The notes under the pieces were generated by a model. It worked only from the letters and a program-made list of their open reading frames with translations, was not told the DNA's origin and ran no database searches. Both the position numbers and the translations under genes were made by a program. Below, piece after piece: positions 1 through 40,147 of a DNA stretch of 64,000 nt. The DNA comes from an uncultured Methylomirabilota bacterium (GTDB lineage: Bacteria > Methylomirabilota > Methylomirabilia > Methylomirabilales > 2-02-FULL-66-22). The DNA is taken from assembly GCA_963705305.1 (NCBI GenBank), contig OY970067.1, forward strand, positions 2,400,001-2,464,000, given 5' to 3'. Position 1 is the first letter of the stretch; every line of letters begins with the position of its first letter.

Positions 1-570
1 AGAAGAGCCAGATCCAAGCGCTCGACCGCACCCAACCCGGCCTCCCGCTGAAGAAGGGCCGGTGCGGCACCCTGACCCACGACTACAAGCGGAACGGCAC
101 GACCACGCTCTTCGCCGCCCTGGGGCTCGTGACGGGCCAGCTCATCGGCACGTGCCTGCCCAAGCATCGGCACCAGGAGTGGCTCCGGTTCCTCCGGCTG
201 ATCGACGCGCAGACCCCGCCCGACCTGGACCTCCACCTGATCGTGGACAACTACGCCACCCATAAACACCCTGCGGTCCAGCGCTGGCTCGCCCGCCACC
301 CACGCTTCCACATGCACTTCATTCCGACCAGCAGCTCGTGGTTGAATCTCATCGAGCGGTGGTTCCGGGAGCTCACGACCAAGCGGCTCCGCCGGGGCGT
401 CTTCAAGAGCGTCGCCGACCTCATCGCCGCCATTGAGGCCTTCATCGCACACCACAACCGCCACCCCCGGTCGTTCACCTGGACGGCCAAGGTGGAGGAC
501 ATCCTGGCGAAAGTCGAGCGGGCTCGAGCAGTGCTGCATAAGATGGCATCTGTGTGACACGGTAGACTAG
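1..570 (+). mobile_element. IS630-family element, 3' part (transposase C-terminus ending at 557, plus right end)
   Basis: DDE motifs ([21 protein letters not shown]); right end GTGTGACACGGTAGACTAG; appears identical to 36950-37519. Confidence 0.95.
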
Positions 571-692
571 GACCGGGGCAAGCGCGCCTCGGACCGGGGG
601 CGGGGGGAGCGGCCGCCGACCGGAGCTGGCAGGGACGGTCTTCCGCTCGCCAGAGGACATCGCCGGGTGGCCGGCAAAGGGGGTTCGGGACC

Positions 693-19507: not shown

Positions 19508-19800
19508 TTATGCCACCGGGCCTGCCCGTAAGGGGCCTGGAAGCCTAACTCCGGGCCTCCGCCCCCTGCCCGGCACGCCAGGCGCTTCCAGCCAACTAGG
19601 TGATCCCGCCATTCGTCCCGGCGATCGGTCCTGACCGGGTCCCCCCCTTCCGGGCGTGAAGGCCGGGGCGATCACTTGACAGGCGATACCGGGGGCGCTA
19701 GGTTGCCGGTAAAGATCGGGGCCGGGGCCCTCCTCGCAGCAGGCCACCACCGGCCCGTCGGGATGCAAGGTCGCCAAAAGCGGCGAATCCGGCGGGACTC
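19508..19800 (-). pseudogene. Degenerate IS110 transposase remnant
   Basis: VACCEEGPGPDLYRQPSAPGIACQVIAPAFTP resembles the IS110 N-terminal YEAGP..GY.LYR...C.VIAP segment. Confidence 0.6.
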
Positions 19801-19909
19801 GGTCGGGATCGAACGGGATGACGGCCCGGACGATGTTCTCCTCTCCGACCGGGAGACGGATTCGCCAGGATCCGACCAAACCGTTTCACCCTTGGTTCGA
19901 ACGGGCAAC

Positions 19910-21163
19910 ATGCATACTTCTGCGGTGGAGACCCATCACGCGCTCCTGCGGATGCTTCTGTTTGAACCGCAGAAGGCAAGGGGCTTTCTGTTCGAGCATA
20001 ACGCCGAGACGGCGCCGTCCGTGCCCGTTCCCGACTGGTCCCGTCTTGGCGAAATGGCGGAACAGGAGGGGGTTTCCGCAGTTCTGTTCCATAACATCAA
20101 GAAGCATAACCTGCAACATCTCGTCCCGCCGGAATGCTACAGGGACTTGTCCAACCAGTTCCATGTCAACCTGAAGCGCAACCTGCTGGTCATCGGCGCA
20201 TTGCGGCAGGTGCTGGCATCCTTTCAGGAGGCCGGCATTCACTGCATCATCCTGAAGGGCATCGCCCTTGCAGAGCGCGTGTACCCGAATATTGCCATGC
20301 GGGGGATGTCAAACGTCGATATCCTGGTCAGGAAAGCGGATCTCTTCAACGCCGACGAACGTCTGTGCTCCTTAGGATACACTTCGCAAGACAGTACCGC
20401 GACACAGGCGATCCTTAACCCCGCCGGGTATCTCGCCAGCCTGGAATACCGCAAACATGAACCGGCCCCCTTAAGCCTTCACGTTCACTGGCATCCAGTC
20501 AATACGTCGATCCCGGCGGCCATCTTCGCCGAGCGTATCGATATCGACCGGCTCTTGGAACGCGCCACGGCGAGCGTCGTGGCCGACAGCCAGGCCTGGA
20601 TTCTGAGCCCGGAGCATCTGATCATCTACCTTTGCGAACACGCCCTGAGGATCGGCCATTCCTTTGACCGCCTGATTCTCGTCTGCGATATCTTTTACGC
20701 CATAAAGGCCTTTGAAGATACCATCGACTGGGACTTTCTTGTCGAGGAGAGCCGTCGCTTCAACCTCTCCCGGTTCGTGTATCACGGGCTGACCATCGTG
20801 AAATATCATACCTCGTTGAATATCCCGGAAGCGTGCATGGCAAAACTGCGACCGCCCGATATCTCATGGGGGGAAAGGTATTTTCTCACACTCCAGTTCA
20901 ACAACCGGCGAATCAGGGGGAGCAGTTACTTCATCTACCTGACGATGCACAGGGGCTTTTTCGCCAAGATCGCATTCATCGCCCGGACCGTCTTTCCGCC
21001 GGTCCGGATCCTCCGGCAGCGACAGTACCGGAAAGACGTTGCATTCTCAAAATCACTGTATCTCCAGCGAGCCAGGGAGATCATTTCGCACATTTTCCTG
21101 TGGTCCTTTAGCAGGGCGAGCGCTGCTCACGGCAAGAGAAAGATGACGAAGGCCCTTCAGTGA
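19910..21163 (+). CDS. Uncharacterised nucleotidyltransferase family protein (NTP_transf_5-like)
   Basis: ILKGIALAERVYPNIAMRGMSNVDILV, LHVHWH, LILVCDI, IDW. Confidence 0.85.
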   Translation: MHTSAVETHHALLRMLLFEPQKARGFLFEHNAETAPSVPVPDWSRLGEMAEQEGVSAVLFHNIKKHNLQHLVPPECYRDLSNQFHVNLKRNLLVIGALRQVLASFQEAGIHCIILKGIALAERVYPNIAMRGMSNVDILVRKADLFNADERLCSLGYTSQDSTATQAILNPAGYLASLEYRKHEPAPLSLHVHWHPVNTSIPAAIFAERIDIDRLLERATASVVADSQAWILSPEHLIIYLCEHALRIGHSFDRLILVCDIFYAIKAFEDTIDWDFLVEESRRFNLSRFVYHGLTIVKYHTSLNIPEACMAKLRPPDISWGERYFLTLQFNNRRIRGSSYFIYLTMHRGFFAKIAFIARTVFPPVRILRQRQYRKDVAFSKSLYLQRAREIISHIFLWSFSRASAAHGKRKMTKALQ

Positions 21164-22794
21164 CAACCAAGAAAGAACCATCCGGGCTGAATCGAGGGGA
21201 CTGCGGGACTGCTCTGCAGACGGAAGAAGCCACCTTCTTCGAGGAGTGGCTGGCCGCAGGCCAGCCCCCGGAGCAGCTCTCGATCAGCGCCGTCTGCAAC
21301 GCCCGCTGCCTCTTCTGCTCGAACCGGATGAATCCTTTCCCGGTCACGCAAAATGTGTTTCGGGACATTGAAGACGTCAAGCTGCAGCTCTCGTTGAGCT
21401 CCGCCAACCATCAGGGCGATATTCACATGAGCGATTCCCTGCCGGGGCGGATTTCGGAAGGGGAGGCCTTTCTGCACCCCCGGTTTTTTGACATTCTCAC
21501 CCTCGTCCGGGAAAAATTCCTGGCCAATTGCCTGCACTTCACGACCAACGCTTCCCTGCTCGACGAGCGTTTCGTGCAAAAACTCGAACCCTTCCGTCCG
21601 GTCGAAATCAACATTTCCCTGCACTCCACGCAGCCGAAGCTGTGGACCCGGATTTTCCAATCTTCGGAGAGACGAGCCCGGACTGCCTTGAACTCTTTTG
21701 ATCTTCTGAAGAAGCATCACATCGACTTTACGGGAACCATCGTCCCTTTGCCCCGAATTTGCGGGTGGAACGACCTCGAAAACACCTTTGCTTTCCTGGT
21801 GGGCGCGGGGGCCAAATCCATCATTCTGTGGTGGCCTGGGTTCTCGGAAAAAACGCCTGCCGGGTTAAAAAGGGAAATCGAATGCCCCTGGGATGAATTC
21901 GGGGATTTCGTGAAGCACATGCAGGAAAAGTTTCCACGATTTCCGGTGATCCCGCAGCCGAACCCGCTGGAGCCCCGGAGGTTGCCGATCAAGCGGATCA
22001 TGAATTTTACGCTTCAGGGAAACCTGAAGACCTTCGGGGGGGCTTTTCGGCACGTGCTGTGGCTCGTTTCCGAGGCAGCCTATCCGGAAATGTCCAAACT
22101 GGTGGCGGAATTTGCGCAGGATGTCCCCAATGAACACCATGTCTTCCCGGTAAGAAACAGATCTTATGGCGGCAACATCCAGGTCAGCGGGCTGCTGATG
22201 GTCTCAGACTTTCTGGCTGCGGGAACGGAGGCACTGCAGAGGTGGCCAGCCGTCGATCTCGTGCTTGTTCCCAAAATGGCGTTTGACGCCTTCTTTCGCG
22301 ATCTGCAGAAGACGCCTGCCTACAAGATTCCGGAAGGGCTGGGAAGAACTACGTGGTTGGTCTTTGAGAAGGGCTCGTTCCTTTCTCTCAAGGGTCGCGG
22401 GTTCGTCACGCCGGAGAATGATCCCCAAAAGACCCTTGAGAAGTTGCTGAAGGTCATTGACGAATCGATACAGGCGGACAAGCTTGATGTCCTTTCGGCG
22501 ATGGTTGCCGCCTTTCCGATTCCGACCTCGGAAGGCATTCTGAAAGAAGGGGAATTCGGGGACTTTTTGAAGGGGATCAAGAAGGGCCAGTCTCCGACCG
22601 GAGCGTTCGAGAAGCGCGTATTTGAAAAGCTTGACGACCATCGCGTTGTTTGCATGGAAGAGCGGCCGACCGCAGATCCGTCCGAAGCGTCTGCTCGCTG
22701 GGTATTTTTCAGGAGAATAGGAAAGGACTGGAAGCTGGAAATGATTTTCTTTTCGCGCATTTCTGTTGACAGTGGATCAGATGGTTCGCTATGA
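21160..22794 (+). CDS. Radical SAM protein with DUF512-like domain
   Basis: CNARCLFC, GEAFLHP, TTNASLL, VRNRSYGGNIQVSGLLMVSDF; start overlaps the upstream stop. Confidence 0.8.
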   Translation: MTTKKEPSGLNRGDCGTALQTEEATFFEEWLAAGQPPEQLSISAVCNARCLFCSNRMNPFPVTQNVFRDIEDVKLQLSLSSANHQGDIHMSDSLPGRISEGEAFLHPRFFDILTLVREKFLANCLHFTTNASLLDERFVQKLEPFRPVEINISLHSTQPKLWTRIFQSSERRARTALNSFDLLKKHHIDFTGTIVPLPRICGWNDLENTFAFLVGAGAKSIILWWPGFSEKTPAGLKREIECPWDEFGDFVKHMQEKFPRFPVIPQPNPLEPRRLPIKRIMNFTLQGNLKTFGGAFRHVLWLVSEAAYPEMSKLVAEFAQDVPNEHHVFPVRNRSYGGNIQVSGLLMVSDFLAAGTEALQRWPAVDLVLVPKMAFDAFFRDLQKTPAYKIPEGLGRTTWLVFEKGSFLSLKGRGFVTPENDPQKTLEKLLKVIDESIQADKLDVLSAMVAAFPIPTSEGILKEGEFGDFLKGIKKGQSPTGAFEKRVFEKLDDHRVVCMEERPTADPSEASARWVFFRRIGKDWKLEMIFFSRISVDSGSDGSL

Positions 22795-22854
22795 AGGGTG
22801 TATCTTTATTGAACCTATTGAAAAGGATGCCGTAAGCGCAATAGGGGGAGGAAC

Positions 22855-23049
22855 ATGAAAGACGACAGGAAAGAGTGGGTCCCGCCCCAATTGATCGTCC
22901 TGGGCAGGGGAACGCCGGAGGAGAATGTCCTGGGCGGCTGCAAGACCTCAACGCTGACGGGTTCCGGCGCCACGAAGACCAGCTGCAAGAAAAAAACGGG
23001 TTCTACTTGCGCCTCAACCCGGTGCAGCACCATTTCCAAAACGTCTTAG
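22855..23049 (+). CDS. Putative RiPP precursor peptide (64 aa)
   Basis: Strong RBS GGGGGAGG; WxPPxLxxLG leader; C-terminal half with 4 Cys and 18 Ser/Thr; directly upstream of rSAM/SPASM genes and PqqD. Confidence 0.85.
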   Translation: MKDDRKEWVPPQLIVLGRGTPEENVLGGCKTSTLTGSGATKTSCKKKTGSTCASTRCSTISKTS

Positions 23050-23059
23050 GTTTTCGTTC

Positions 23060-25033
23060 TTGGATAGACAAGCGAACCTCAGTAAAAGCGCGAGACGCAT
23101 CCCACGGCTGCCCCTCGAAGGCAACATCGATCTGACCTACCGGTGTAACTGCAACTGCCGCCACTGCTGGCTGTGGCTGCCGGCAAACGACAAAGTCGAG
23201 AAACGGGAGCTTTCATTCGACGACATCGATAGAATTGTGGGTGAAGCCCGGGCGATGGGCTGCCGCAGGTGGCTGATTTCCGGCGGCGAACCCATGCTGC
23301 GTCCCGACTTCGTCGATATTTTCGATATGATCACGCGCCGCTCGCTTTCCTATTCGCTGAATACGAACGGCACGCTGATCACGCCGACCATCGCCCGCCT
23401 GCTGCGAAGAAAAGGCGCGAAGATGGTCGCTCTCTACGGGGCGACCGCGGAAATCCACGATCACATTACGCGGACCCCCGGATCCTTTGCGGCGGTCCTG
23501 CGGGGTTTTGCCTACCTCCGGGAGGCCAGGGCGGGTTTCATCGTCCAGCTCATCCCCATGCGCGACAATTATCATGAGTTCGACGCCATGATGCGGCTCG
23601 CCCGCTCCCTGAGCCCCGTGTACCGCGTGGGCGCACCGTGGCTGTACCTTTCCGCCTGCCGCAGCGCCGTCCGCAACCGCGAAATTTCACGGCAGAGGTT
23701 GGACCCGGCGGATACGATCCGCGTCGAACCGCCCGATGCCGTCGATGACGATGGGCCGATGACCCAGATCGAGGGGGACGGCAAGCCGCCGTCCCGCCTT
23801 CAGCCCGGCGCAGACGGCCGGCTTTTCGAGGCCTGCATCGAAGGATGCCGGGATTTCCACATCGATCCCTACGGCGGTATGACCTTCTGCCCCTTCATCA
23901 AAGACCCTGCGCTGCGCTACAATCTGCGGAAGGGAAGTTTTCGGGAGGCATGGGATGCGTTCATCCCTTCGCTTGCCGAGAAGGTACACGCCGATCCGGA
24001 GTATGAGGAAAACTGCGGCCGCTGCGAAAAACGCGTGGATTGCCGCTGGTGCCCCGCCTATGCCTACCTGGAAGAAGGCCGATACTCGGCGAAGGTCCCG
24101 TACCTGTGCGCTCTTGCGGATGGAACGCGATCTTACAAGGAAAACTGGCTGCGGCATCACCGCCGGTATTTCCGAATTGCCGGCGTAACGATCCGGGTGG
24201 ATTCCGATCTTCCGTTCACGGAAAAGACCTTTGACCCGAAGTTCAAGAAGTTCGAAGCGGAGGGCCCGTCGGAAGATACGATTTCCTTGCGCCATCATTT
24301 TTCGGTCCCGAAATTTGACCGGGACGACACGGGCCAGGAGATGTACCGCCGGGCGCCCTGGGCGATCTACCGCAAGGGCCGATCCTGGATCTATCTGGGC
24401 ATCGGGCCCGGGCGGCGCGATCGATCTATCCACTGCGCGGCCGCATTTAATGAGGGGCATACGCGGGGGCGGATCTACAACCACGGCGAAGCCCGTTTTC
24501 GCCATGGGAACCTGCACGCCCTGACGCTGTTCCCCTCCGATCAGATCCTGCTGGCGCGGGCGCTTGCCGACCGCCAGGCCTGCTTTGTCCACGCCGCGGG
24601 GGTGGACATCGGCGGGAAGGGGCTCCTGCTGGTGGGGCATTCCGGAGCCGGGAAAACCACGGCGGCGAGAATGCTGCGGACGCATGGGGAAGTGCTCTGC
24701 GACGACCGGATCGTCGTGCGCCGCTGGCCGGAGGGGCTCCGCATCCACGGGACCTGGAGCCACGGCGAGCTGCCGGACGTGTCCGCCGGCTCCGCCCCGC
24801 TTTCCGCCATCCTGTTCCTCGAAAAGGCGGATGGAAACCGCCTCGTGCCGGTGACGAGGACCATCGAGATCGCGCGGCTTCTTGCCCAGCATGTGGTGAG
24901 GCCTCTGGTGACGGCCGACTGGTGGGAAAAGATCCTGGCCCTGGTAGACACCGTGGCGCGGGAGGCTCCGGCATACCGACTCGAGTTCGACAAGAGCGGC
25001 CGGATGATTGAGGATGTCGCGAAAATACTGTGA
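23060..25033 (+). CDS. Radical SAM/SPASM protein fused to a C-terminal HPr-kinase-like P-loop domain
   Basis: CNCNCRHC, SGGEP, SPASM CGRC..DCRWCP..YLC; C-terminal HAAGV, GHSGAGKTT, LCDD, HGTW. Confidence 0.9.
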   Translation: MDRQANLSKSARRIPRLPLEGNIDLTYRCNCNCRHCWLWLPANDKVEKRELSFDDIDRIVGEARAMGCRRWLISGGEPMLRPDFVDIFDMITRRSLSYSLNTNGTLITPTIARLLRRKGAKMVALYGATAEIHDHITRTPGSFAAVLRGFAYLREARAGFIVQLIPMRDNYHEFDAMMRLARSLSPVYRVGAPWLYLSACRSAVRNREISRQRLDPADTIRVEPPDAVDDDGPMTQIEGDGKPPSRLQPGADGRLFEACIEGCRDFHIDPYGGMTFCPFIKDPALRYNLRKGSFREAWDAFIPSLAEKVHADPEYEENCGRCEKRVDCRWCPAYAYLEEGRYSAKVPYLCALADGTRSYKENWLRHHRRYFRIAGVTIRVDSDLPFTEKTFDPKFKKFEAEGPSEDTISLRHHFSVPKFDRDDTGQEMYRRAPWAIYRKGRSWIYLGIGPGRRDRSIHCAAAFNEGHTRGRIYNHGEARFRHGNLHALTLFPSDQILLARALADRQACFVHAAGVDIGGKGLLLVGHSGAGKTTAARMLRTHGEVLCDDRIVVRRWPEGLRIHGTWSHGELPDVSAGSAPLSAILFLEKADGNRLVPVTRTIEIARLLAQHVVRPLVTADWWEKILALVDTVAREAPAYRLEFDKSGRMIEDVAKIL

Positions 25034-25060
25034 AACGTCCCCGCCGATCGGGATCACGGC

Positions 25061-26245
25061 ATGACGGAACGCACGTATGTTGATAAGAGGAATATCGGTC
25101 ATGCCCCCCACTGGGGAGGAGAGGGGCCTCCCGCGGTTCATCTCGACATCGAGCTAACGGAGCGCTGCAACAACACCTGCATCCACTGCTGCATCAACAA
25201 ACCGGCTGGGGACAAGCGGAGCCTGGCCCGCGAGCTTGAGACCTCCGCCTGGAAGGACATCCTCCGCCAGGCCGCCGAGCTGGGGGTGATGACGGTCCGT
25301 TTCACCGGCGGCGAGCCGCTGCTCCGGCAGGATTTTTCCGACCTGTACCTGTTTGCGCGCCGCCTCGGGCTGAAGGTGATGCTGTTCACCAACGCCCGGC
25401 TCATCGGGCCGCACATCGCCGCACTGCTGGCCGATGTTCCCCCCCTCGAAGATATCGAGATTTCCGTATACGGCATGAGCAGGGAGTCCTATGAAGCCGT
25501 CACGGGCGTTGACGGTTCTTACGCCGAGTTCCGCAATGGCGTGCAGTGTCTGCTCGACAGAAAGATCCCTTTCGCTGTAAAAGGAGCGCTGCTGCCGCCC
25601 AATAAACATGAAATGGCGGAATTCGCTGCCTGGGCGGCCGCCAACACTCGGATGGATATCCCTCCCACGTACGCCATGTTCTTTGACCTGCGGGGGCGGC
25701 GGGATTCCGCCGCCAAAGACAGCAGGATCAGGCGCCTGCGCGTCTCTCCCGAAGAGGGCCTGCAGATCCTCACCCGGCATCCGGACCGGTACCTGAAGGA
25801 GATGTCCGAATTCTTTGAAAGGTATTCATCGCCTCCCGGTGACCGGCTGTTCACCTGTGGAATCGGACCGGGTTGCGTGGATGCCTACGGTGTTTTCCAG
25901 CCCTGCCTGTCGCTCCGACACCCCGATTTGACTTCTGATTTAAAAAGAGGCGCCCTGAAAGAAGCCCTGGCGTCCGGAGTCACCCGCCTTCGAGAAATGA
26001 AGGCCACGAATCCGCTTTATCTCAAACGATGCGCACGCTGTTTCCTGAGGGGCTTCTGTGAGCAATGCCCGGCCAAGTCATGGTCTGAACACGGCACGCT
26101 GGACAGGCCGGTCGAATACTGCTGCCGGGTGGCCCATGCGCAGGCCCGGTTTCTGGGGCTCGTCATGGAGAAAGAACGGGCATGGGAGGTCCGCGACAGC
26201 GCAGAAAGAATACAGAACCTCAGAAGGAGAGTGGCGGCGACATGA
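25061..26245 (+). CDS. Radical SAM/SPASM maturase
   Basis: CNNTCIHC, TGGEP, CGIG..QPC, CARCFLRGFCEQCP..YCC. Confidence 0.93.
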   Translation: MTERTYVDKRNIGHAPHWGGEGPPAVHLDIELTERCNNTCIHCCINKPAGDKRSLARELETSAWKDILRQAAELGVMTVRFTGGEPLLRQDFSDLYLFARRLGLKVMLFTNARLIGPHIAALLADVPPLEDIEISVYGMSRESYEAVTGVDGSYAEFRNGVQCLLDRKIPFAVKGALLPPNKHEMAEFAAWAAANTRMDIPPTYAMFFDLRGRRDSAAKDSRIRRLRVSPEEGLQILTRHPDRYLKEMSEFFERYSSPPGDRLFTCGIGPGCVDAYGVFQPCLSLRHPDLTSDLKRGALKEALASGVTRLREMKATNPLYLKRCARCFLRGFCEQCPAKSWSEHGTLDRPVEYCCRVAHAQARFLGLVMEKERAWEVRDSAERIQNLRRRVAAT

Positions 26246-26550
26246 AGAAGATACGGATGGACATGGTTTTTTCCCACTCCAGCGATGTGGTGTCGAGGGA
26301 AATTGACGGCGCTTTGATTATCGTCCCCCTCACATCCGGCGTGGGCGATATGGAAGACGACCTGTTTTCCATGAATGAATCCGGTACGGAAATCTGGAGC
26401 ATGCTGGACGGCAAAAAGACCTTGCAAGAGATCGTCGAGGCCCTGGCTCGGCAATACCATGCCGAGCCGGGAGAGATCGAACGGGACGTCGCTGGAATCG
26501 TCGAGGAATTGCTCAAAAGGAGAATGCTTGTCGAAGCGACCGCCGCGTGA
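26242..26550 (+). CDS. PqqD-family protein (RiPP recognition element)
   Basis: VVSREIDG, FSMNESGTEIWSMLDG, IERDV..IVEELLKRRML; ATGA overlap with the upstream gene. Confidence 0.92.
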   Translation: MKKIRMDMVFSHSSDVVSREIDGALIIVPLTSGVGDMEDDLFSMNESGTEIWSMLDGKKTLQEIVEALARQYHAEPGEIERDVAGIVEELLKRRMLVEATAA

Positions 26551-27058
26551 ATACCTGCATCCCGCGATGCGGAAAGTCGGCCTGCCCCTTTCCGGAGAGG
26601 CCCTGATTGCGCTCATGCAGACTGTGCATGGGAAAGGATTCCCCTTCCGATTCAGCGCCGGCGGATACAGCATGACGCCCTTCATCAGGGATGGCGACGT
26701 GATCACCGTCTCTTCCCTGGCTTCGCATGCGCCGCGTCGGGGGGACGTCGTGGCGTTCGTCCACCCGGAAACACAACGGCTTTGCCTGCACCGGGTGCTG
26801 TCCGTCCATGGAGACAGCTTCTTCATCCAGGGCGACAATATGCCTGAAAGACCGGACGGTGTGATTCCGCGAGAGGCGATTCTCGGGCGGGTCACGGGTA
26901 TCGAGCGCGCCGGCAGGAGAGTCAGACTGGGGCTCGGCCCCGAACGCCTGCTGGTCGCCATTCTGAGCCGATGCGGAGGCATGGCCCTGACCCGGCGGTA
27001 TGCCGGCTGGCTCCATGCCTATTTCAGCAGGAGCCACGGATCGTGCGAAAAGCGTTAG
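26528..27058 (+). CDS. S24/S26-family (signal peptidase-like) peptidase; start uncertain
   Basis: GYSMTPFIRDGD, GDVVAF, LHRV, QGDN, ILGRV. Confidence 0.85.
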   Translation: MSKRPPREYLHPAMRKVGLPLSGEALIALMQTVHGKGFPFRFSAGGYSMTPFIRDGDVITVSSLASHAPRRGDVVAFVHPETQRLCLHRVLSVHGDSFFIQGDNMPERPDGVIPREAILGRVTGIERAGRRVRLGLGPERLLVAILSRCGGMALTRRYAGWLHAYFSRSHGSCEKR

Positions 27059-28188
27059 TATCCTATACGAGCCTGCCCGATTTTGCGCTCTGGGATGCAC
27101 TCGGGGACAGGCGGATTCCGCTGTCCTTCGATCTCGAGGTGACCGCCCGCTGCAACAACAATTGCCGTCATTGCTACATCAACCTCCCGCCGGACGATAG
27201 CGCGGCTCTGCGTGATGAACTGACGCTGGAGGAAATCAGCCGCATTGCGGACCAGGCTGTCTCCCTCGGGTCCCTCTGGTGCCTGATAACGGGCGGCGAA
27301 CCTCTTCTCCGAGCAGATTTTCCTGATCTGTACCGGCTGCTGAAGAGCAAGGGCCTGTTGGTTTCCCTTTTTACCAATGCCTGCCTGGTCACGGAGAAGC
27401 ACATACAACTGTTCAGGAGCTATCCCCCGCGGGATATCGAGGTCACCGTGTATGGCGCCACGGGCGAGACGTATGAACGGGTGACCCGTAGTTCCGGCTC
27501 CTATGCGGCGTTCCGCCGCGGCCTGACCCTGCTGCTCGAGGGGGGGGTCAAGGTGAATCTGAAGACCATGGTGCTGCGTTCCAATAAGCATGAACTGCCG
27601 GCTATCGCCCGTTTCTGCCGAGAAAGAACGAAAGGCCCTTTTCGCTTCGATCCCATGCTGCACCTGCGGTTTGACGGAAACGAGCGAAGAAACGATGAAA
27701 TACGCGCAGAGAGGCTGACGGCCGAGGAGATCATCGGGATTGAACAGGCGGATCCGGAGCGGTTGGCGGCCATGGAAAAGAGATGCGGCATGCTGGAGAC
27801 AGCCGCCGCCGAGGCAGGACCGGATTATCGTCTTTTTCAGTGCCAGGCGGGAGGAGAGAGTTTCGCCGTGAGCTGCAACGGTCTCTTCCGTCTCTGCTCG
27901 TCTCTGTGGCAGCCTGACTGTCTCTACGATCTGTGCCAGGGCACGCTGGCCGAAGCCTGGTTCGATTTCACCCCGCGGATACGCGCAATCACCTCGGACA
28001 ACACTGAATATCTCGAGACCTGCCGCCTGTGTCCCCTCATGAATCTGTGCCAATGGTGCCCCGCCCATGCCCATCTGGAGTGCGGCCGCATGGATGAACG
28101 GTGTGGATACTTCTGCCGCGTGACACAGGCACGGGCGGAAGCGTTCGGGAAGCGGGAAAAGGCGGCATCCACATCCGAAGAAAGATGA
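27043..28188 (+). CDS. Radical SAM/SPASM maturase
   Basis: CNNNCRHC, TGGEP, CQAG..RLC, CRLCPLMNLCQWCP..YFC. Confidence 0.93.
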   Translation: MRKALVSYTSLPDFALWDALGDRRIPLSFDLEVTARCNNNCRHCYINLPPDDSAALRDELTLEEISRIADQAVSLGSLWCLITGGEPLLRADFPDLYRLLKSKGLLVSLFTNACLVTEKHIQLFRSYPPRDIEVTVYGATGETYERVTRSSGSYAAFRRGLTLLLEGGVKVNLKTMVLRSNKHELPAIARFCRERTKGPFRFDPMLHLRFDGNERRNDEIRAERLTAEEIIGIEQADPERLAAMEKRCGMLETAAAEAGPDYRLFQCQAGGESFAVSCNGLFRLCSSLWQPDCLYDLCQGTLAEAWFDFTPRIRAITSDNTEYLETCRLCPLMNLCQWCPAHAHLECGRMDERCGYFCRVTQARAEAFGKREKAASTSEER

Positions 28189-33669: not shown

Positions 33670-34025
33670 GGGGGGCCCGACCGTCGAGGGGACGTTGCTT
33701 CTTTGTTCTCCTTGCTCCAGACAGACTGAAGAGGTGCCGGCGTAATCCGCAAACACCCGCCCCGCCCACCGGCTCCGCCGACCCCGCCGGCCCCGTGTCC
33801 CTTGGACAGACAACCGCGCGGCAGGACGTTGCCTATTCAGTAAGGCGGTGAGACACTGCTGAGGGCCGGGGCTGGAAGCGAGGCGATGGCATCTGAGCAC
33901 CGACGGCGGAGAAGCCGTACGACGCCTTGCGGGAGACGATCGATACATCCGAGTTCCTTACCGCGCCCAATGGTCGAGTCCGGGACCCGGAGAGAGGTCC
34001 GGGCGACAGCGAAAGGAGGCTCTCG

Positions 34026-34253
34026 ATGCTCGTGATCAGCGCGAAGGGGATCATCTATGATGTTCCGGAAAAAGTGCTCGAGAAGCATACGTTTCCCCGC
34101 TGGATCGACAAGAAGGACGAGATCCTGAAGATGTTCACCTCCCTGTCCAAGGTCATCAAGGAGTCGAAGACGGGGCTGAAGGGAGATGTCGAGGGGCAGG
34201 GGTGCTGCAACCGCTACGCGAACTGGTGCCCGCCGGGAGGAGCGGACATCTGA
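34026..34253 (+). CDS. Putative RiPP precursor peptide (75 aa)
   Basis: RBS AAAGGAGG; charged helical N-region; C-terminal GDVEGQ-GCCNRYANWCPPGGADI; upstream of two rSAM genes. Confidence 0.8.
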   Translation: MLVISAKGIIYDVPEKVLEKHTFPRWIDKKDEILKMFTSLSKVIKESKTGLKGDVEGQGCCNRYANWCPPGGADI

Positions 34254-34404
34254 GCGATCCGGCCAGCCGGGGCTTCACGATGACACGACGGATGCCGCCA
34301 GCGGATCATTCGGAGGCTGAAGGGTGCCGCCGGCCCATGCGAGGCCCTGTCTGGAAGCGGGAAACCGTTGGCGGGCAGCGGTCCGCTCCTGAAAGGCCCA
34401 GGCC

Positions 34405-35595
34405 ATGAAGAGGGCCCCCGCTCCACAAAAGGGCGTCCTGCGAGACCTTGCCGGTGTCACCGCGTGTCCGCTGACGGCATGCAACCTGAGGTGCTCGTAC
34501 TGCTACCAGGATGCCGAGCAGTTCTCCGGTTCTCCGCAGTACCTGCCGGGCGTGCATGATCCGGTCCGGCTCGCCGCAGGCCTGGCGCGCCTGCTGTCAC
34601 TGTCCCGGAGGCCGAACCATTCCATCGTCCTCTCGGGGGGTGAGCCGCTCCTCCTGCCGGAATCGTGGTACCGCGCCTTCTTTTCGGCCATGGATGGCGG
34701 GATGCCCGCCTCGAAACAGATCCGCTATTCCCTGCAGACCAACATGCTTCGCTGGGACGATGGGGTCATGTCGCTCCTGGCGGAGCGCCGGGCGCACTTC
34801 TCGGTCCATTACGACGGCCCCGGGGGGGACGCTTCGCTCCGCGCCGAGGAGCGACGGGCAAACATCGAGCGGCTGCACGCCAAGGGGTGCTCGATCACCG
34901 CGATCGTGGTGGGAACCCCTCCGGCCCTGGCGGAGCTCTCCGCCACCCTCGAGCTGCTCCGACGCTGCGGGGTCAAGCATTACCACCTGAACTGCGTCTC
35001 CGGGGAAGGGCGGGGGGCCGGATCGCCGCAGCCCGATCCGGCGCGGAGGGCGGAGGCCGAGTTCGAGAGCGCGTTCTTCGCCTCCCAGAGCGACTTCGCG
35101 ACCTGGGACCCCGTCATCATGAACAAATTCGCGAGCCATGCCAGGTGGGCGGCCGGGGGGAGGAAGCAGCCGCCCACGCCGGTCCCCCAGCGGTGCGGCG
35201 CCGGCACCAAAACGGTCGTCATCTCGTCGGACGGGACGATCTTTCCGTGCGGGTTCTTTCCGCGGGCCGCGGGCCCGATGGGGCACATCGCCGGCCTCCC
35301 GGCGCTCGGCGCCGAGGCGGCCCGGTCCATCTCCCGCTGCGGGAAGGCGAGTCCGTTCTTCGAAGAGCGGTGTCCGGAATGTCCGGCCCTTCCGATCTGC
35401 GGGGACTACTGCGCCCTCACGCCGACCGGGGACGGCGGCTTCATGGGCTCGTTCTGCGAATCGCAGCGCCGTCTGATGGCCCTGATGGAGGAGAGTCGGC
35501 GGCTGGCGACTCTGATTGCCAGGCGGTTTCTGGCGTACCGGACCGCCCGCCCGGGCGAGCGGCCGACGACCTGCGGGGTCACGTACGGCGAGTAG
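34405..35595 (+). CDS. Radical SAM/SPASM maturase (anaerobic sulfatase maturase-like fold)
   Basis: CNLRCSYC, SGGEPLL, LQTN, SVHYDG, CGAG..IFPC, CPECPALPICGDYC..FC. Confidence 0.92.
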   Translation: MKRAPAPQKGVLRDLAGVTACPLTACNLRCSYCYQDAEQFSGSPQYLPGVHDPVRLAAGLARLLSLSRRPNHSIVLSGGEPLLLPESWYRAFFSAMDGGMPASKQIRYSLQTNMLRWDDGVMSLLAERRAHFSVHYDGPGGDASLRAEERRANIERLHAKGCSITAIVVGTPPALAELSATLELLRRCGVKHYHLNCVSGEGRGAGSPQPDPARRAEAEFESAFFASQSDFATWDPVIMNKFASHARWAAGGRKQPPTPVPQRCGAGTKTVVISSDGTIFPCGFFPRAAGPMGHIAGLPALGAEAARSISRCGKASPFFEERCPECPALPICGDYCALTPTGDGGFMGSFCESQRRLMALMEESRRLATLIARRFLAYRTARPGERPTTCGVTYGE

Positions 35596-36345
35596 CGGAA
35601 TGGCCCATCGGCGGGCACCCGTCCACCGAGCGGGTCCCGCCGCAACCGGGGGATTGCCCGCCGGCAGGGAGCGCACAGACGAGCCGGGAGGGACGGGTGG
35701 GCGCGTCGCGCCGGGGGTCCGGCACTGTTCTGTATGTCAACTCGGCGCTGCGGGAGAGCGACTGGTTTATCGTTCCGACATCGATCACCACGCTCATGCA
35801 GACGCTGCCGCCGCGCTGGCATCGGCAGGGCGTTTTCGCGTGGGAGCTGACCGATGCCCTGATCCGCTCCGCCTCGGCGATCATCCTCGATTGCCACTGG
35901 TTCACTTCCCTGCCGGAGACCATCGGCCTCGTGCGGTGGGTGCGCGACCTCTGCCCGCAGACGCCGGTCATCCTGGGCGGCTACACGGCCCAGCTCTTCC
36001 ACCGGGAGCTTCTGCCTCTCGTCGGCGCGGCCTATGTCATTCGGGGAGACAACGAGCAGGCCTTCCCGCGCCTGGTGGATGCCCTCTGCCGGGGGGATGT
36101 CGACGAGGCCCGCCGCCTGCCGAACGTTGCCGGCGCGGATTTCGCCAATCCCATCACCTACCGATTCGGGCCGGAGGATTATGCGGGGATTTTATTCGGG
36201 ATCGACTGGTTTCCGTCGTACGCGCGCCGCATCGCCATGATCAACAAGGGGAACTGCCTCGGCATGGACCACGAGTTCTACCGCTATCCGCTCCTGGTCA
36301 TGTCCAAGGGCTGTTCCCAGGATTGCCCGTTCTGCCTGGGGAGCA

Positions 36346-37519
36346 CTAGTCTAGTGTGTCATAAATACGGTGACTTATAGTACGTACTCTGGTATGCTCC
36401 TCGGTGAGGAGGAGCAAGCCATGCGTGTGGCGGTGCCGATTGTGCTGAGCCCGCAGGAACGCACCATCTTGGAACGCTGGGCACGGGGGCGGCGCACCCC
36501 CGCGCGCCTCGTGCGCCGGGCGCAGATCGTCCTGCGCGCGGCGGCGGGGCAGCGGAACGACGAGGTCGCCCGGGCCCTGGACACGGATCGCGAGTGTGTG
36601 GGTCGGTGGCGGACTCGCTTCGCCCAGCAGCGGCTGGCCGGGATCGAGCGGGATGCCCCGCGCCCCGGCCGGACGCCCGCCATCGCCCCGGCGGTCCTGC
36701 AGCGCATCGTCACCCTGACGACAACCAGCGCGCCGCCCGCCGCCACCCACTGGAGCACGCGGACCCTGGCGGCCGCGGTCGGCGTGAGCCCGAAGACCGT
36801 GCACCGGGTCTGGCAGGCCCACGGCCTGAAGCCGCATCGGGTCCGCCCGTTCAAGGTGAGCCGCGACCGGCGGTTCCTCGAGAAGCTGACCGATGTGGTG
36901 GGGCTGTACCTGAATCCCCCTGAGCACGCGTTGGTGCTGTGCGCCGACGAGAAGAGCCAGATCCAAGCGCTCGACCGCACCCAACCCGGCCTCCCGCTGA
37001 AGAAGGGCCGGTGCGGCACCCTGACCCACGACTACAAGCGGAACGGCACGACCACGCTCTTCGCCGCCCTGGGGCTCGTGACGGGCCAGCTCATCGGCAC
37101 GTGCCTGCCCAAGCATCGGCACCAGGAGTGGCTCCGGTTCCTCCGGCTGATCGACGCGCAGACCCCGCCCGACCTGGACCTCCACCTGATCGTGGACAAC
37201 TACGCCACCCATAAACACCCTGCGGTCCAGCGCTGGCTCGCCCGCCACCCACGCTTCCACATGCACTTCATTCCGACCAGCAGCTCGTGGTTGAATCTCA
37301 TCGAGCGGTGGTTCCGGGAGCTCACGACCAAGCGGCTCCGCCGGGGCGTCTTCAAGAGCGTCGCCGACCTCATCGCCGCCATTGAGGCCTTCATCGCACA
37401 CCACAACCGCCACCCCCGGTCGTTCACCTGGACGGCCAAGGTGGAGGACATCCTGGCGAAAGTCGAGCGGGCTCGAGCAGTGCTGCATAAGATGGCATCT
37501 GTGTGACACGGTAGACTAG
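36346..37519 (+). mobile_element. Complete IS630-family element inserted at a CTAG site
   Basis: Imperfect terminal IRs CTAGTCTAgtGTGTCA / TGACACggTAGACTAG; TA at 36347-8 and 37517-8. Confidence 0.95.
36421..37506 (+). CDS. IS630 transposase
   Basis: [52 protein letters not shown]. Confidence 0.96.
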
Positions 37520-38536
37520 GTGCTACAAACGCCTCTTCGACCGCGCCCAGGTTCCCATCCCCTTTCCCCATCTGGAGAAGATCCTCCGCAGGCTGGAAGG
37601 GGACCCCGCGACACCCGCCGCGCATCTCTACTTCAACTGGCCCGTTTCCGAATACCGCTCCTTCTTCGCCCGGCACCGCTTCAGCCTCGACCTCCTGAGC
37701 CAGATCGATGTCCTCCCCGACCTGGAGGACCTGCGGGTCCTGGCAGGCGCGTTTCGCAGCAGCCTCTTTTACGTCGGCCTCGGCCATGCCGTCTACAGCG
37801 ATCGCGCGGACCCGGAGATCGACGTTCGGCGTTATCTCGACGCGTTCGGCCGGCTGAAGTTCTTCGTCTCCCGGGCGCAGTACGACGCGTTGCGGGGCCG
37901 CTACGGCGACCGGCTGCTCTCGACGACCGACACCTGGCGGATCCCCGAGCTCTTCGACGGGTTCGAGAGCTGCCTGAAGAGGGCCGTCGCCTCGGCCAGA
38001 CGGCTCCTCCTGGAGGACCCGCGGGCCTGGGCCTTTCGCCTGATCCTTCGCGACCACCCCGCCTACCGCCGGCGCCTGTTCCGGGCCCTGGGCCTCCGGG
38101 CTCGAGAACGTCCGCGGCAGGGCCATGCACTACAGCCAGGAAGAGTACATCCTGCACCGGAACGCCTGCTAGCGTCGGCGGCGCTGAAGAGGGCGTGGCC
38201 GCCGCCTCGATCCGGGCCATTCGCGCTTCCGATCCATTGCGCCTATTCGCTTGACACGCCTCCCGCTCTGAGACATTCTGTGTCGGCCCGCGGGGGTTGC
38301 GTGCGGCTGTGGCCCGCCATGAACGGGTGTCTGCCCGACCCGCCGCCGGGGGTCTTACGCTTCGCAGCTCCTTGGGCCGCCATTTCCCATCTCCATCTCC
38401 AGGGGCGCCGGTCCGCCAGCGCCGGCGGAAGGCATGGCGCGTGCGGGCGTAAACGTCCCGGAGAGCCGGAGTGCCTATACGGCGTCACTGTCTTGCGCGA
38501 AGGTCCAGATGCGTTGTTCAGAGGAGGATGGTTTCG

Positions 38537-40147
38537 ATGCGACGGATTCTTATGATCGTGGCGGTAGCGCTGTTCATGCTGGGGGCGACGGCGGACGTCG
38601 GCTCGGCGGCCCGCCCGGGGGGGACGTTCAACTTCGTCGTGCCCTACGGCGGGGACGTGTTCACCCTGGATCCGCACCGGACGCCGAACACCAACGACAT
38701 CATCGTGACCATGAACATCAACCGCAGCCTGTACAGCTGGGACGACAACGCCAACCGGCCCAAGCTGGAACTGGGCGAGAAGGCAGAGGTGTCTCCGGAC
38801 GGCCTGGTCTACCGGATCGCGCTCCGGAAGAACGTGAAGTTCCACAACGGCCGCCGGATGACCGCGGACGACATCATCTGGAGTTATGAGCGGATTCTGA
38901 ATCCGAAGATCGCGTCGCCGTCGGCCCGCTTCATCCGGGTGATCAAGGGGGCCCAGGAGTTCGAGGAGGGGAAGGCCACCCATAGCTCCGGCCTCCGGAA
39001 GATCAACGACTTCACACTCGAGATCACCATGGACAAGCCGATCGATCCGGCCTATACGCTGTACGAGGGAGGAACGGCCATCCTGCCGCGCGAAGAGGTG
39101 GAGAAGCGCGGGGACGCCTTCGGGACCGATCCGGTGGGCCTGGGCCCCTTCAAGTTCCTCCGATGGGTGAAGGGCAGCGAGATCGTCCTGGTCAAGAACC
39201 CCGACTATTACGAGAAGGGGAGGCCGTATCTGGACAAGGTGGTGTACAAGGTCATGCCCGAGGGGGCCGCCCGCGACGCCGCCTTCCGCGCCAAGGAGCT
39301 GGACGCGACCGTGGTGGGCGCGGCCCAGTACCCCGCCTACGAGGCGGACCCGGAGATCTCCAAGAACCTGGTGGAGGTGGCCGAGCTGTTCACGCGCCTC
39401 ATCGGCTTCAACCCGAGGTTCGAGCCCTTCGCCAAGAAGGAGGTCCGCCAGGCCATCAACTACGCCATCAACTCCCGCCTGATCATCGATCGCCTACTGA
39501 AGGGCAAGGCCTTCCCGGCGGTGGGCTACCTGCCCACGACCTCGCCGGCGTTCGATCCCAAGGCCAAGGGGTACGAGTATAATGTCGAGAAGGCCAAGGA
39601 GCTGATGAAGAGGGCGGGGTACGAGAATGGCTTCACCTTCGAGTGCATCGGGACCAGCAACGAGTCCTGGGGGATCCCGGTGGTCGAGGCCATCATGCCC
39701 TTCCTGAAGCAGATCAACATCACGGTGAAGCCCCAGCAGCTGGAGGGGGGCACGCTGTCCGACCGGATCCGCAAGATGGAGTACCAGGCCTTCATCTGGT
39801 CGGTATCCAGCGGCGCGGGTGGCGACGCCCTCCAGGCTCTCGCCCGCTGGGGCTCGAAGAATTCGGCCGCGGGCGGGAACTTCGTCGAGTACAGCAACCC
39901 CGAGTTCGACAAGCTGCTGGATCAGGCCGGCAAAGAGCGGGATATCGCCAAACGAAACGAGATCCTGCGCAAGGCCGACGCCGTGTTCCGGGAGGACGCG
40001 CCGGTCTGGTTCTTCAACTACAACAAGGCGGTGATCGCCCACCAGCCGTGGGTCCACGGCATCAAGAAGGCCGCGATCGAGATGATGTTCCAGGACCTGA
40101 CCGATCTCTGGGTGGACGATAGCTCTCCGCGGGCCAACGTCAAGTAG
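38537..40147 (+). CDS. ABC transporter substrate-binding protein, family 5 (peptide/nickel)
   Basis: Signal peptide, LRKNVKFHNG, PVGLGPFKF, VRQAINYAIN, YSNPEFDKLL. Confidence 0.94.
   Translation: MRRILMIVAVALFMLGATADVGSAARPGGTFNFVVPYGGDVFTLDPHRTPNTNDIIVTMNINRSLYSWDDNANRPKLELGEKAEVSPDGLVYRIALRKNVKFHNGRRMTADDIIWSYERILNPKIASPSARFIRVIKGAQEFEEGKATHSSGLRKINDFTLEITMDKPIDPAYTLYEGGTAILPREEVEKRGDAFGTDPVGLGPFKFLRWVKGSEIVLVKNPDYYEKGRPYLDKVVYKVMPEGAARDAAFRAKELDATVVGAAQYPAYEADPEISKNLVEVAELFTRLIGFNPRFEPFAKKEVRQAINYAINSRLIIDRLLKGKAFPAVGYLPTTSPAFDPKAKGYEYNVEKAKELMKRAGYENGFTFECIGTSNESWGIPVVEAIMPFLKQINITVKPQQLEGGTLSDRIRKMEYQAFIWSVSSGAGGDALQALARWGSKNSAAGGNFVEYSNPEFDKLLDQAGKERDIAKRNEILRKADAVFREDAPVWFFNYNKAVIAHQPWVHGIKKAAIEMMFQDLTDLWVDDSSPRANVK

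Follow-up and report, generated by a model that had tools for sequence, protein, structure and literature searches.

Pairs of a radical S-adenosylmethionine (SAM) enzyme with a SPASM domain and a small precursor peptide, often accompanied by a B12-dependent radical-SAM methyltransferase, are a well-known kind of system for making peptides that come from the ribosome and are modified after translation (RiPPs). Such pairs have been a repeated source of new cross-link chemistry and of useful scaffolds. The system described here lies at positions 34026 to 38172 of a 64,000-nucleotide stretch of contig OY970067.1 (assembly GCA_963705305.1) from an uncultured Methylomirabilota bacterium, and this whole stretch is called the window below. 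It comprises a gene for a 75-amino-acid precursor, a gene for a radical-SAM/SPASM maturase, and a B12-type radical-SAM gene that is broken by an insertion sequence (IS). The three genes are likely to form a RiPP cassette of a family that is neither curated nor, as far as could be found, published.

The PapB-type ranthipeptide maturases, QhpD, and the SCIFF maturase CteB likewise combine a short SPASM enzyme lacking a RiPP recognition element (RRE) with a small cysteine-containing precursor. Unlike the PapB type, for which we take the precursor motif to be Cys-X3-Asp/Glu, the window family scores far below the cut-off of 340 bits, has no CX3D/E motif, offers Asn as its polar residue, carries an unrelated leader, and has a B12-type partner. 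The triceptide enzymes (ChlB, XyeB, YhhB, FxsB, GrrM/OscB, and AmcB) are also RRE-less SPASM proteins acting on aromatic-X-X motifs, which would here take the forms Y-x-N and W-C-P, and ChlB binds its leader directly according to the title of its PDB entry. Unlike triceptide systems, the window family has three invariant cysteines and a single core motif block in place of repeats, and it misses their cut-offs.

Anaerobic sulfatase-maturating enzymes (anSMEs; TIGR03942; PDB 4K36-4K39) are like the window maturase in size and domain order and align with it over the full length (query residues 25-356 to chain residues 14-353), but the window maturase has a dedicated small precursor instead of a sulfatase and an extra conserved C-terminal tail that includes C390. 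The 'cobopeptide' enzyme CbpB (TIGR04163), presumably a peptide-modifying SPASM enzyme as its family name implies, aligns over nearly its full length (residues 17-336 to model positions 65-387), and about 65 positions at the N-terminus of its model have no counterpart in the window maturase. Class B radical-SAM methyltransferases (TsrM, TokK, CysS, and MgmA) have an N-terminal B12-type Rossmann domain followed by a CX3CX2C radical-SAM domain, an order also predicted for the third enzyme of the window. Unlike the class B RiPP methyltransferases, the window-type enzyme is short (about 430 amino acids), its N-terminal part reaches 12.7 bits against TIGR03975 (cut-off 281.85), and its B12-binding match lies below the Pfam cut-off.

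Full-text literature searches with the core and leader strings of the family gave no match, and the supplementary tables of mining studies may list it. Searches for TIGR04163 or cobopep, and for Syntrophorhabdus together with radical SAM and precursor peptide, found no literature, and nothing specific was found in those portions of the RiPP literature on Methylomirabilota and Rokubacteria that were accessible. The combination of genes, which the first-pass annotation of this DNA did not recognise as a described family, still has no literature that could be found, and its maturase reaches no curated family cut-off.

Co-conservation of precursor and maturase

A co-oriented short open reading frame (ORF) stands directly upstream of the maturase gene in 29 of 31 homologous loci (14 + 17 from genome and metagenome contig scans), among which L015 and L026, L017 and L034, and L033 and L037 are duplicate contigs and L027 is nearly identical to L028. 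The two loci in which it is missing (L024 and L030) hold only 88 and 134 nucleotides of upstream DNA; all loci with enough upstream DNA carry the peptide gene, and so does the orthologue in the same-genus genome G162. This is the outcome that the first-pass annotation had proposed to look for in homologues of the enzyme. The short ORF is not a chance frame, because it persists in genomes of 47-63% guanine plus cytosine (GC).

In the window, the precursor ORF runs from an ATG at 34026 to a stop codon at 34251-34253 and encodes 75 amino acids (MLVISAKGIIYDVPEK...LKGDVEGQGCCNRYANWCPPGGADI), and the strong ribosome-binding site reported for it at first pass is present (Table 1). Across 24 distinct precursors, the N-terminal leader motif ML..G...DVPE is invariant family-wide (M1, L2, G8, D12, V13, and P14), as are C60, C61, N66, C68, and P69 of the core. 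Residue 67 is Y or W in all of them, and at residue 64 one precursor has L and the other 23 have Y or F, so that five positions of the ten-residue core block are invariant and two further ones nearly so. The residues that had been singled out from the window sequence alone (C60, C61, N66, W67, C68, and P69) thus coincide with the invariant or near-invariant core. No Asp or Glu occurs from C60 onward in any precursor, and the invariant polar residue is N66. The middle region is variable, and overall identity between the window precursor and those of the Desulfobacterota is 27-39%. This pattern, with a fixed leader motif and core on either side of a variable middle, is by its sequence that of a leader-plus-core RiPP precursor. 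The precursor reaches no family-level model in NCBIfam or Pfam.

In five precursors, CGCCC replaces xGCCN, which places a cysteine at both -2 and +3 relative to the CC pair. On the enzyme tree two changes account for the variant, which was gained once and reversed once, with the two positions switching together on each occasion. These joint changes hint that the positions flanking the CC pair may work as a pair, whether in a disulfide, a metal site, or a pair of cross-links.

The 151-nucleotide spacer between the precursor and maturase genes was searched for a terminator-like site and none was found, and the spacer, taken as 166 nucleotides for folding, folds no better than shuffled sequences (z = -0.01). 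One promoter-like match lies at 34280-34309 and is a consensus match only.

The maturase family is small and discrete by the sequence searches made. A word-based search with the maturase returned 15 other proteins at E<=1e-5, of which 13 share 65-80% identity with it (three of these being fragments covering 74-84% of the query) and one shares 42%; the fifteenth, with 34% identity over 36% of the query, is a distant radical-SAM relative only. An exhaustive profile search of 1.84 billion representatives returned 11 proteins at E<=1e-30, after which scores drop to 118.7 bits. The 40 next-nearest representatives are likewise without a family assignment, their best match being to the DynA model (E 5.7e-51).

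A maximum-likelihood tree of 25 enzymes divides into two clades with support of 100/100. The Methylomirabilales-type clade consists of the enzymes from the window, G162, L008 (Candidatus Methylomirabilales), L022, and L023, and the clade of Thermodesulfobacteriota (Desulfobacterota), with 20 rows, includes Syntrophorhabdus, Syntrophobacter, Desulfatitalea, and Desulfobacteraceae, as the records are titled. Within the phylum of the window, the maturase was found in 3 of 201 sampled genomes, all in the window's genus, where 2 of the 14 other members have it, and this frequency makes the cassette a rare accessory one.

The radical-SAM/SPASM maturase

The maturase matches the Pfam model Radical_SAM (PF04055) at 50.9 bits (cut-off 29.5) and the SPASM domain model TIGR04085 at 35.6 bits (cut-off 27). 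In 21 full-length homologues, the CX3CX2C cysteines C26, C30, and C33 are invariant, and so are seven SPASM cysteines (C264, C282, C323, C326, C332, C336, and C351). An eighth invariant cysteine of the auxiliary region, C390, lies in a P-x-x-C-G motif of a conserved C-terminal tail. Within this tail, which follows the SPASM motif (residues 352-396), R374, P383, P387, C390, and G391 are invariant in both clades; on these sequences it could supply a further cluster ligand or form part of a leader-binding surface. With CX3CX2C starting as early as residue 26, an N-terminal RRE would not fit in front of it, which agrees with the earlier description of a SPASM enzyme without an obvious RRE.

In comparisons with NCBIfam profiles, the maturase falls under every curated equivalog cut-off. 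Its best match is PapB (NF047865; 57.7 bits against a cut-off of 340), and further matches are AmcB (49.6 against 425), YhhB (46.2 against 445), anSME (46.1 against 349.45), CbpB (41.1 against 375), and the additional cyclophane-family models FxsB (39.8 against 370), GrrM/OscB (27.8 against 310), and XyeB (24 against 450). A family profile compared with the PDB found ChlB at 46 bits (E 3e-11), anSME at 44.2 bits, and CteB at 42.3 bits, the ChlB match being confined to the N-terminal radical-SAM part (query residues 23-147). In a single-sequence comparison with the PDB, anSME came first (E 7.2e-7) and CteB was among the matches.

An AlphaFold model of the maturase built from 12 sequences has a mean predicted local distance difference test (pLDDT) score of only 62.6, with a poor SPASM region, and is therefore a rough guide in the Foldseek comparison, which returned anSME (E 1.2e-7), ChlB, TigE, CteB, SuiB, and SkfB. 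A look-up in the ESM Atlas gave generic radical-SAM clusters only. On sequence grounds the maturase belongs among the peptide- and protein-modifying SPASM enzymes, and these comparisons leave its chemistry undecided.

The pairing of the maturase with the precursor was also modelled as a complex that included SAM and three clusters. The prediction scored 0.59, while the best of three controls scored 0.02; the runs share at least 25% of contacts, and the partner pLDDT is at least 36. Of 157 solved complexes 116 attain the mark applied, as do 2 of 215 mismatched pairs, and scores of 0.60 or less take in only 18 of the 157 solved complexes and both of the passing mismatches; these counts are a rough calibration, as custom alignments and riding ligands were used. 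The model thus weakly backs the pairing of the two proteins.

The interrupted B12-type radical-SAM gene

The third gene starts with a GTG at 35697, preceded by GGGAGG, and is interrupted by an IS630-family element directly after its radical-SAM motif CSQDCPFC. The terminal inverted repeats of the element are imperfect (GTCTAGTGTGTCA / GTCTACCGTGTCA), matching at 11 of 13 positions, and a duplicated TA borders it on either side (36347-8 and 37517-8). Read through the element, the gene continues as ..CPFCLGST|RCYKRLFDR.., and the uninterrupted relative in L008 reads ..CAFCLGSTRCYSRLFDR.. with the junction CLGSTRCY. The insertion is clean, because the junction in L008 is the same. The element is present in nine copies of 100% identity in the genome, one of which overlaps the start of the window (window 1-571; genome 2399399-2400571). 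The insertion is recent, as these identical copies show, and they also mark the element as an active one here.

The two parts of the gene share 81% (5' part) and 74% (3' part) identity with an intact orthologue in G162 (L069:6869-8212). By tblastn and DNA alignment, the conserved C-terminus ..HYSQEEYILHRNAC, with a stop at 38172, is read in the next frame after one extra base near 38120-38125. Since 9 of 11 members of the window-type B12 enzyme family share the C-terminus YSQEEYILH.NAC, the gene ends at 38172; positions 38173-38555 are a spurious open-frame extension in DNA of 68% GC, entered after the frameshift. The first-pass annotation had rightly reported a B12-type radical-SAM gene interrupted by an IS; it had extended the gene to 38555, which does not stand, and the frameshift is a second lesion. 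In public reads, the best run contained 38% of the sequence words, and the contigs were short, reached at most 3 letters past the junctions between IS and gene, and left the frameshift site uncovered; none of them joined across the IS.

The window-type enzyme family comprises only 11 detected proteins, several of them on maturase contigs, and the CX3CX2C cysteines (C198, C202, and C205) are invariant in all 11. The B12-binding match to PF02310 is sub-threshold, with 27.8 bits for the window fragment and 28.5 bits for the intact orthologue against a cut-off of 32.1. A model of the G162 orthologue (pLDDT 80.9) has TsrM, TokK, CysS, MgmA, and OxsB, and also AprD4, as its best fold matches; the top match has an E value of 5e-10 and a TMq of 0.52, and those to TsrM, TokK, CysS, and OxsB range from 5e-10 to 3.6e-6 in E value and from 0.41 to 0.53 in TMq. 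According to this model, the third gene product folds like cobalamin-dependent radical-SAM enzymes. AprD4 is, as we understand it, a diol dehydratase that works without cobalamin.

Accessory genes in the two clades

A window-type B12 gene follows the maturase in all four Methylomirabilales-type loci with more than 1 kb of downstream DNA (the window, L008, L023, and L069). The arrangement in Desulfobacterota loci is different. Of the 22 loci whose downstream DNA spans 400 nucleotides or more, 21 have a major facilitator superfamily (MFS) transporter gene after the maturase gene, and of the 19 in which it spans 2.1 kb or more, 15 then have a convergent gene for a B12-radical-SAM protein of 470-620 amino acids. 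The latter enzyme scores 142-166 bits against the RiPP C-methyltransferase model TIGR03975, under its cut-off of 281.85. Orthology of the window-type and Desulfobacterota B12 enzymes was considered, and none is detectable (BLASTP E values 0.5 and 1.1). As judged from these gene orders, the constant unit of the family is the precursor with the SPASM enzyme, and a B12-type step is attached in both clades by different enzymes.

L008, the most divergent of the Methylomirabilales-type loci, has an extra gene for a 342-amino-acid radical-SAM protein (L008:1415-2443; CLNACRHC; PF04055 31.5 bits) between the SPASM and B12-type genes, an addition that neither the window nor G162 has. In a Syntrophorhabdaceae subclade with a CGCCC core (L013, and L015, which is the same as L026), a gene for a 388-amino-acid radical-SAM protein stands upstream instead of a B12 gene, and L013 encodes downstream an 895-amino-acid protein without a Pfam or NCBIfam match. 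In L011, which has no B12-type gene, the match to a radical-SAM gene of this sort is only partial and lies on the other strand.

Leader end and paralogous precursors

The first-pass annotation drew attention to a leader ending in GDVEGQ and proposed a check on the conservation of DVEGQ and of the core. The core is kept family-wide, as set out above, and the KGDVEGQ leader end occurs only in the Methylomirabilales-type clade, where DVEGQ sits in a clade-specific insertion. In a six-frame translation of this genome, all three occurrences of DVEGQG lie near the C-terminus of short ORFs that adjoin radical-SAM/SPASM genes. GDVEGQ may be a shared leader-processing signal, possibly served by a subtilisin encoded at one of the two other loci (L007), an assignment made by analogy. 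That three otherwise unrelated precursors share GDVEGQ points to a common, lineage-specific leader processing, which could be exploited for heterologous maturation.

The second DVEGQG precursor, at C1:~3791100-3792430 (L006:8126-9427), ends in ...KKRSDVEGQGAQDFFDHGCINRCSR and is followed by a 331-amino-acid radical-SAM enzyme that is TIGR04463-like (158 bits, cut-off 525) but does not extend over the N-terminal part of the model; third-position GC at this locus is low (0.58). The third precursor, at C1:~4169300-4179640 (L007:4310-14638), has 67/68 amino acids, ends in ...KKKKGDVEGQGCGFAAIGGVRG, and belongs to a fuller RiPP cluster. This cluster encodes a PapB/QhpD-like SPASM enzyme and a TIGR04463-like one with an N-terminal extension, an ATP-binding cassette (ABC) exporter, a cyclic-nucleotide-monophosphate-binding protein, a GAF protein, a QhpE-like subtilisin (L007:11280-12041), an FkbM methyltransferase, and a PhpK-like B12-type radical-SAM enzyme. 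Orthologues of its precursor occur in 2 of 18 same-genus genomes (G162 and G163), with GDVEGQ kept and the next residue varying.

Proposed pathway and alternative explanations

In the pathway proposed here, the 75-amino-acid peptide would be the substrate, and the RRE-less SPASM enzyme would bind the invariant leader segment ML..G...DVPE directly. The enzyme is then expected to install one or more intramolecular cross-links in C-C-x-x-[Y/F]-x-N-[Y/W]-C-P, after which the B12-domain radical-SAM enzyme may add a further modification, most likely a C-methylation. GDVEGQ is the probable end of the leader in this lineage and would be cleaved by a protease encoded elsewhere, a candidate being the subtilisin-like protein beside the paralogous GDVEGQ precursor of L007. 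The precursor and SPASM genes are intact in this genome, and because the B12-type gene is broken by both the IS and the frameshift, the bacterium would make at most a cross-linked, unmethylated, and unfinished peptide.

As for the cross-link itself, a Cys-derived thioether is somewhat favoured over a three-residue aromatic cyclophane at Y-x-N or W-C-P. The three invariant cysteines together with the invariant Asn, and the lack of any other obvious radical acceptor pattern, speak for the thioether. Its chance is put at a little below even and that of the cyclophane at a lower though still substantial level, with some other chemistry making up the rest.

Several points weigh against this pathway. 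Peptide modification is predicted from the genes alone, and sequence, profile, and fold comparisons leave the thioether- and cyclophane-forming relatives unseparated. An Asp or Glu acceptor like that of PapB and QhpD is missing from the core, and the single Leu at residue 64 makes it less credible that a Y-x-N cyclophane is universal. Among the Desulfobacterota loci, four (including two copies of one contig) lack a B12-type gene within reach, so that the family does not depend on the B12 step. The sub-threshold B12 match and the structural neighbour AprD4 mean that neither methylation nor cobalamin use is assured, and the frameshift near 38120-38125 could be either real or an assembly error. 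The role of GDVEGQ as a cleavage site is argued from analogy. A degenerate DNA search for DVEGQG matched 79 of 201 genomes of the phylum, mostly by chance, and among 30 such loci inspected only the window locus and its G162 orthologue are short precursors, the rest lying inside long or out-of-frame ORFs; given these mostly chance matches, no claim of a widespread motif is made.

The same cassette could instead be built around a triceptide-type cyclophane synthase that joins the ring of Y/F64 to the beta-carbon of N66, W/Y67 to P69, or both, through a C-C bond, and in that case the cysteines would have a separate function, for instance in a disulfide or in binding a metal. This is possible, though not probable. 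Among the 24 precursors, [Y/F]-x-N is found in 23 and [Y/W]-C-P in all, short tripeptides that could arise otherwise, and the triceptide motifs described in PMC12912966 include YSK, HAS, and FTK. ChlB, which the reference list of that paper names as a cyclophane synthase, is the best PDB profile match, is RRE-less, and was crystallised with its substrate leader according to the PDB title, and AmcB, YhhB, FxsB, GrrM, and XyeB are among the weak NCBIfam matches. However, every cyclophane-family cut-off is missed widely, the ChlB match is N-terminal only and no better than those to anSME or CteB, one precursor has Leu at residue 64, and three invariant cysteines are left unexplained.

Those cysteines are taken up by another account, considered rather unlikely, in which the product would not be of the antibiotic type but a Cys-rich peptide, conserved and metal-binding, or else a cofactor derived from a peptide, following the logic of methanobactin, pyrroloquinoline quinone, and mycofactocin, and would be exported by the MFS transporter in Desulfobacterota. 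Bacteriocin-type cores usually vary, and the core here is unusually constant across two phyla. Besides its three invariant cysteines, the core has the CGCCC variant with five, in which the joint change of the paired positions is one reason for keeping metal binding under consideration, although this covariation amounts to two events only. The adjacent MFS pump family has the enterobactin exporter EntS among its matches (66 bits, below the cut-off), a similarity generic to MFS pumps, macrolide pumps being matched equally well. The hosts are, to judge by the titles of their records, sediment or groundwater anaerobes or microaerophiles, in whose habitats thiophilic metals may be scarce; yet the loci inspected have no metal-related gene as a regular neighbour, and the patchy spread in the phylum is more like that of an accessory natural product than that of a cofactor.

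It is very improbable that the enzyme is an anSME-like protein modifier and the short ORF a chance high-GC frame. The top matches of the maturase in both the single-sequence PDB comparison and the Foldseek comparison are anSMEs, and long spurious ORFs are common in a genome of 68% GC. This account is nevertheless already contradicted by the conservation of the short ORF as protein in 29 of 31 loci, including genomes of 47-58% GC in which chance ORFs are rare, and it is at odds with the strong ribosome-binding site and with a score far under the TIGR03942 cut-off. Sulfatase neighbours, which the first-pass annotation had named as evidence that would count against a peptide substrate, were not seen among the annotated flanks of the related loci, where annotation is partial and no dedicated sulfatase search was made.

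The cross-linking cassette remains the preferred reading, and it presents a well-defined target for RiPP enzymology, with a minimal two-gene core of precursor and RRE-less maturase, a sharply conserved ten-residue motif, 24 naturally occurring versions of the precursor, B12-radical-SAM partners of two independent kinds, and intact orthologues for expression. The window also holds a natural experiment, in which the B12 step was lost to a very recent IS and the first two genes are intact. The interest for RiPP enzymology is moderate, and would be higher if the product were a conserved metallophore or cofactor. A more ambitious picture, and a decidedly speculative one, is a new Cys-rich cross-linked peptide common to Methylomirabilales-type bacteria and syntrophic Desulfobacterota, in which the core CC..Y.N[Y/W]CP would be a metal-binding or redox unit (metallophore or cofactor) with an uncatalogued cross-link, for example from Cys-S to Asn or an aromatic residue, with RRE-less leader recognition and a B12 step recruited on two independent occasions.

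Features and genomic neighbourhood

Table 1. Coordinates of the features of the cassette in the window and of related features in the Syntrophorhabdaceae subclade.
Feature	Position	Strand	Basis or remark
Ribosome-binding site AGGAGG	34014..34019	+	6-nucleotide spacer to the ATG of the precursor gene; sequence reading
Precursor leader, residues 1-58	34026..34199	+	Alignment of 24 distinct precursors
Precursor core and follower (GCCNRYANWCPPGGADI) with stop codon	34200..34253	+	Core C-C-x-x-[Y/F]-x-N-[Y/W]-C-P
Radical-SAM/SPASM maturase, 396 amino acids, no RRE	34405..35595	+	PF04055, TIGR04085, invariant cysteines
B12-binding-domain/radical-SAM gene, 5' part	35697..36348	+	GTG start; ends in the codons after CPFCLGST
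IS630-family insertion sequence, 1168 bp	36349..37516	+	NF033545, terminal inverted repeats, TA duplication
IS630 transposase ORF	36370-37506	+	NF033545, 271.7 bits (cut-off 100)
B12-type gene, 3' part	37517..38172	+	In frame across the IS, then +1 frameshift near 38120-38125
Syntrophorhabdaceae-subclade features	L013:8626-11310 and L013:4306-5469		Also in L015

The cassette is flanked in the window by an Fe-S aldo-keto reductase gene upstream and a peptide ABC uptake system downstream. The earlier statement that no protease or exporter gene is adjacent is borne out at this locus and does not extend to the family, given the MFS exporter of the Desulfobacterota loci. A separate cluster at 19676-28185, presumably the one that the first-pass annotation counted as the first, was considered as a supplier of a protease or exporter, and none is evident among its products. 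It encodes three radical-SAM/SPASM-like proteins at 23060-25030, 25061-26242, and 26971-28185, whose best matches are AhbD, StsB, and ScmE/F, far below the cut-offs, together with two large ORFs without an NCBIfam match, and its third-position GC is lower than that of its surroundings.

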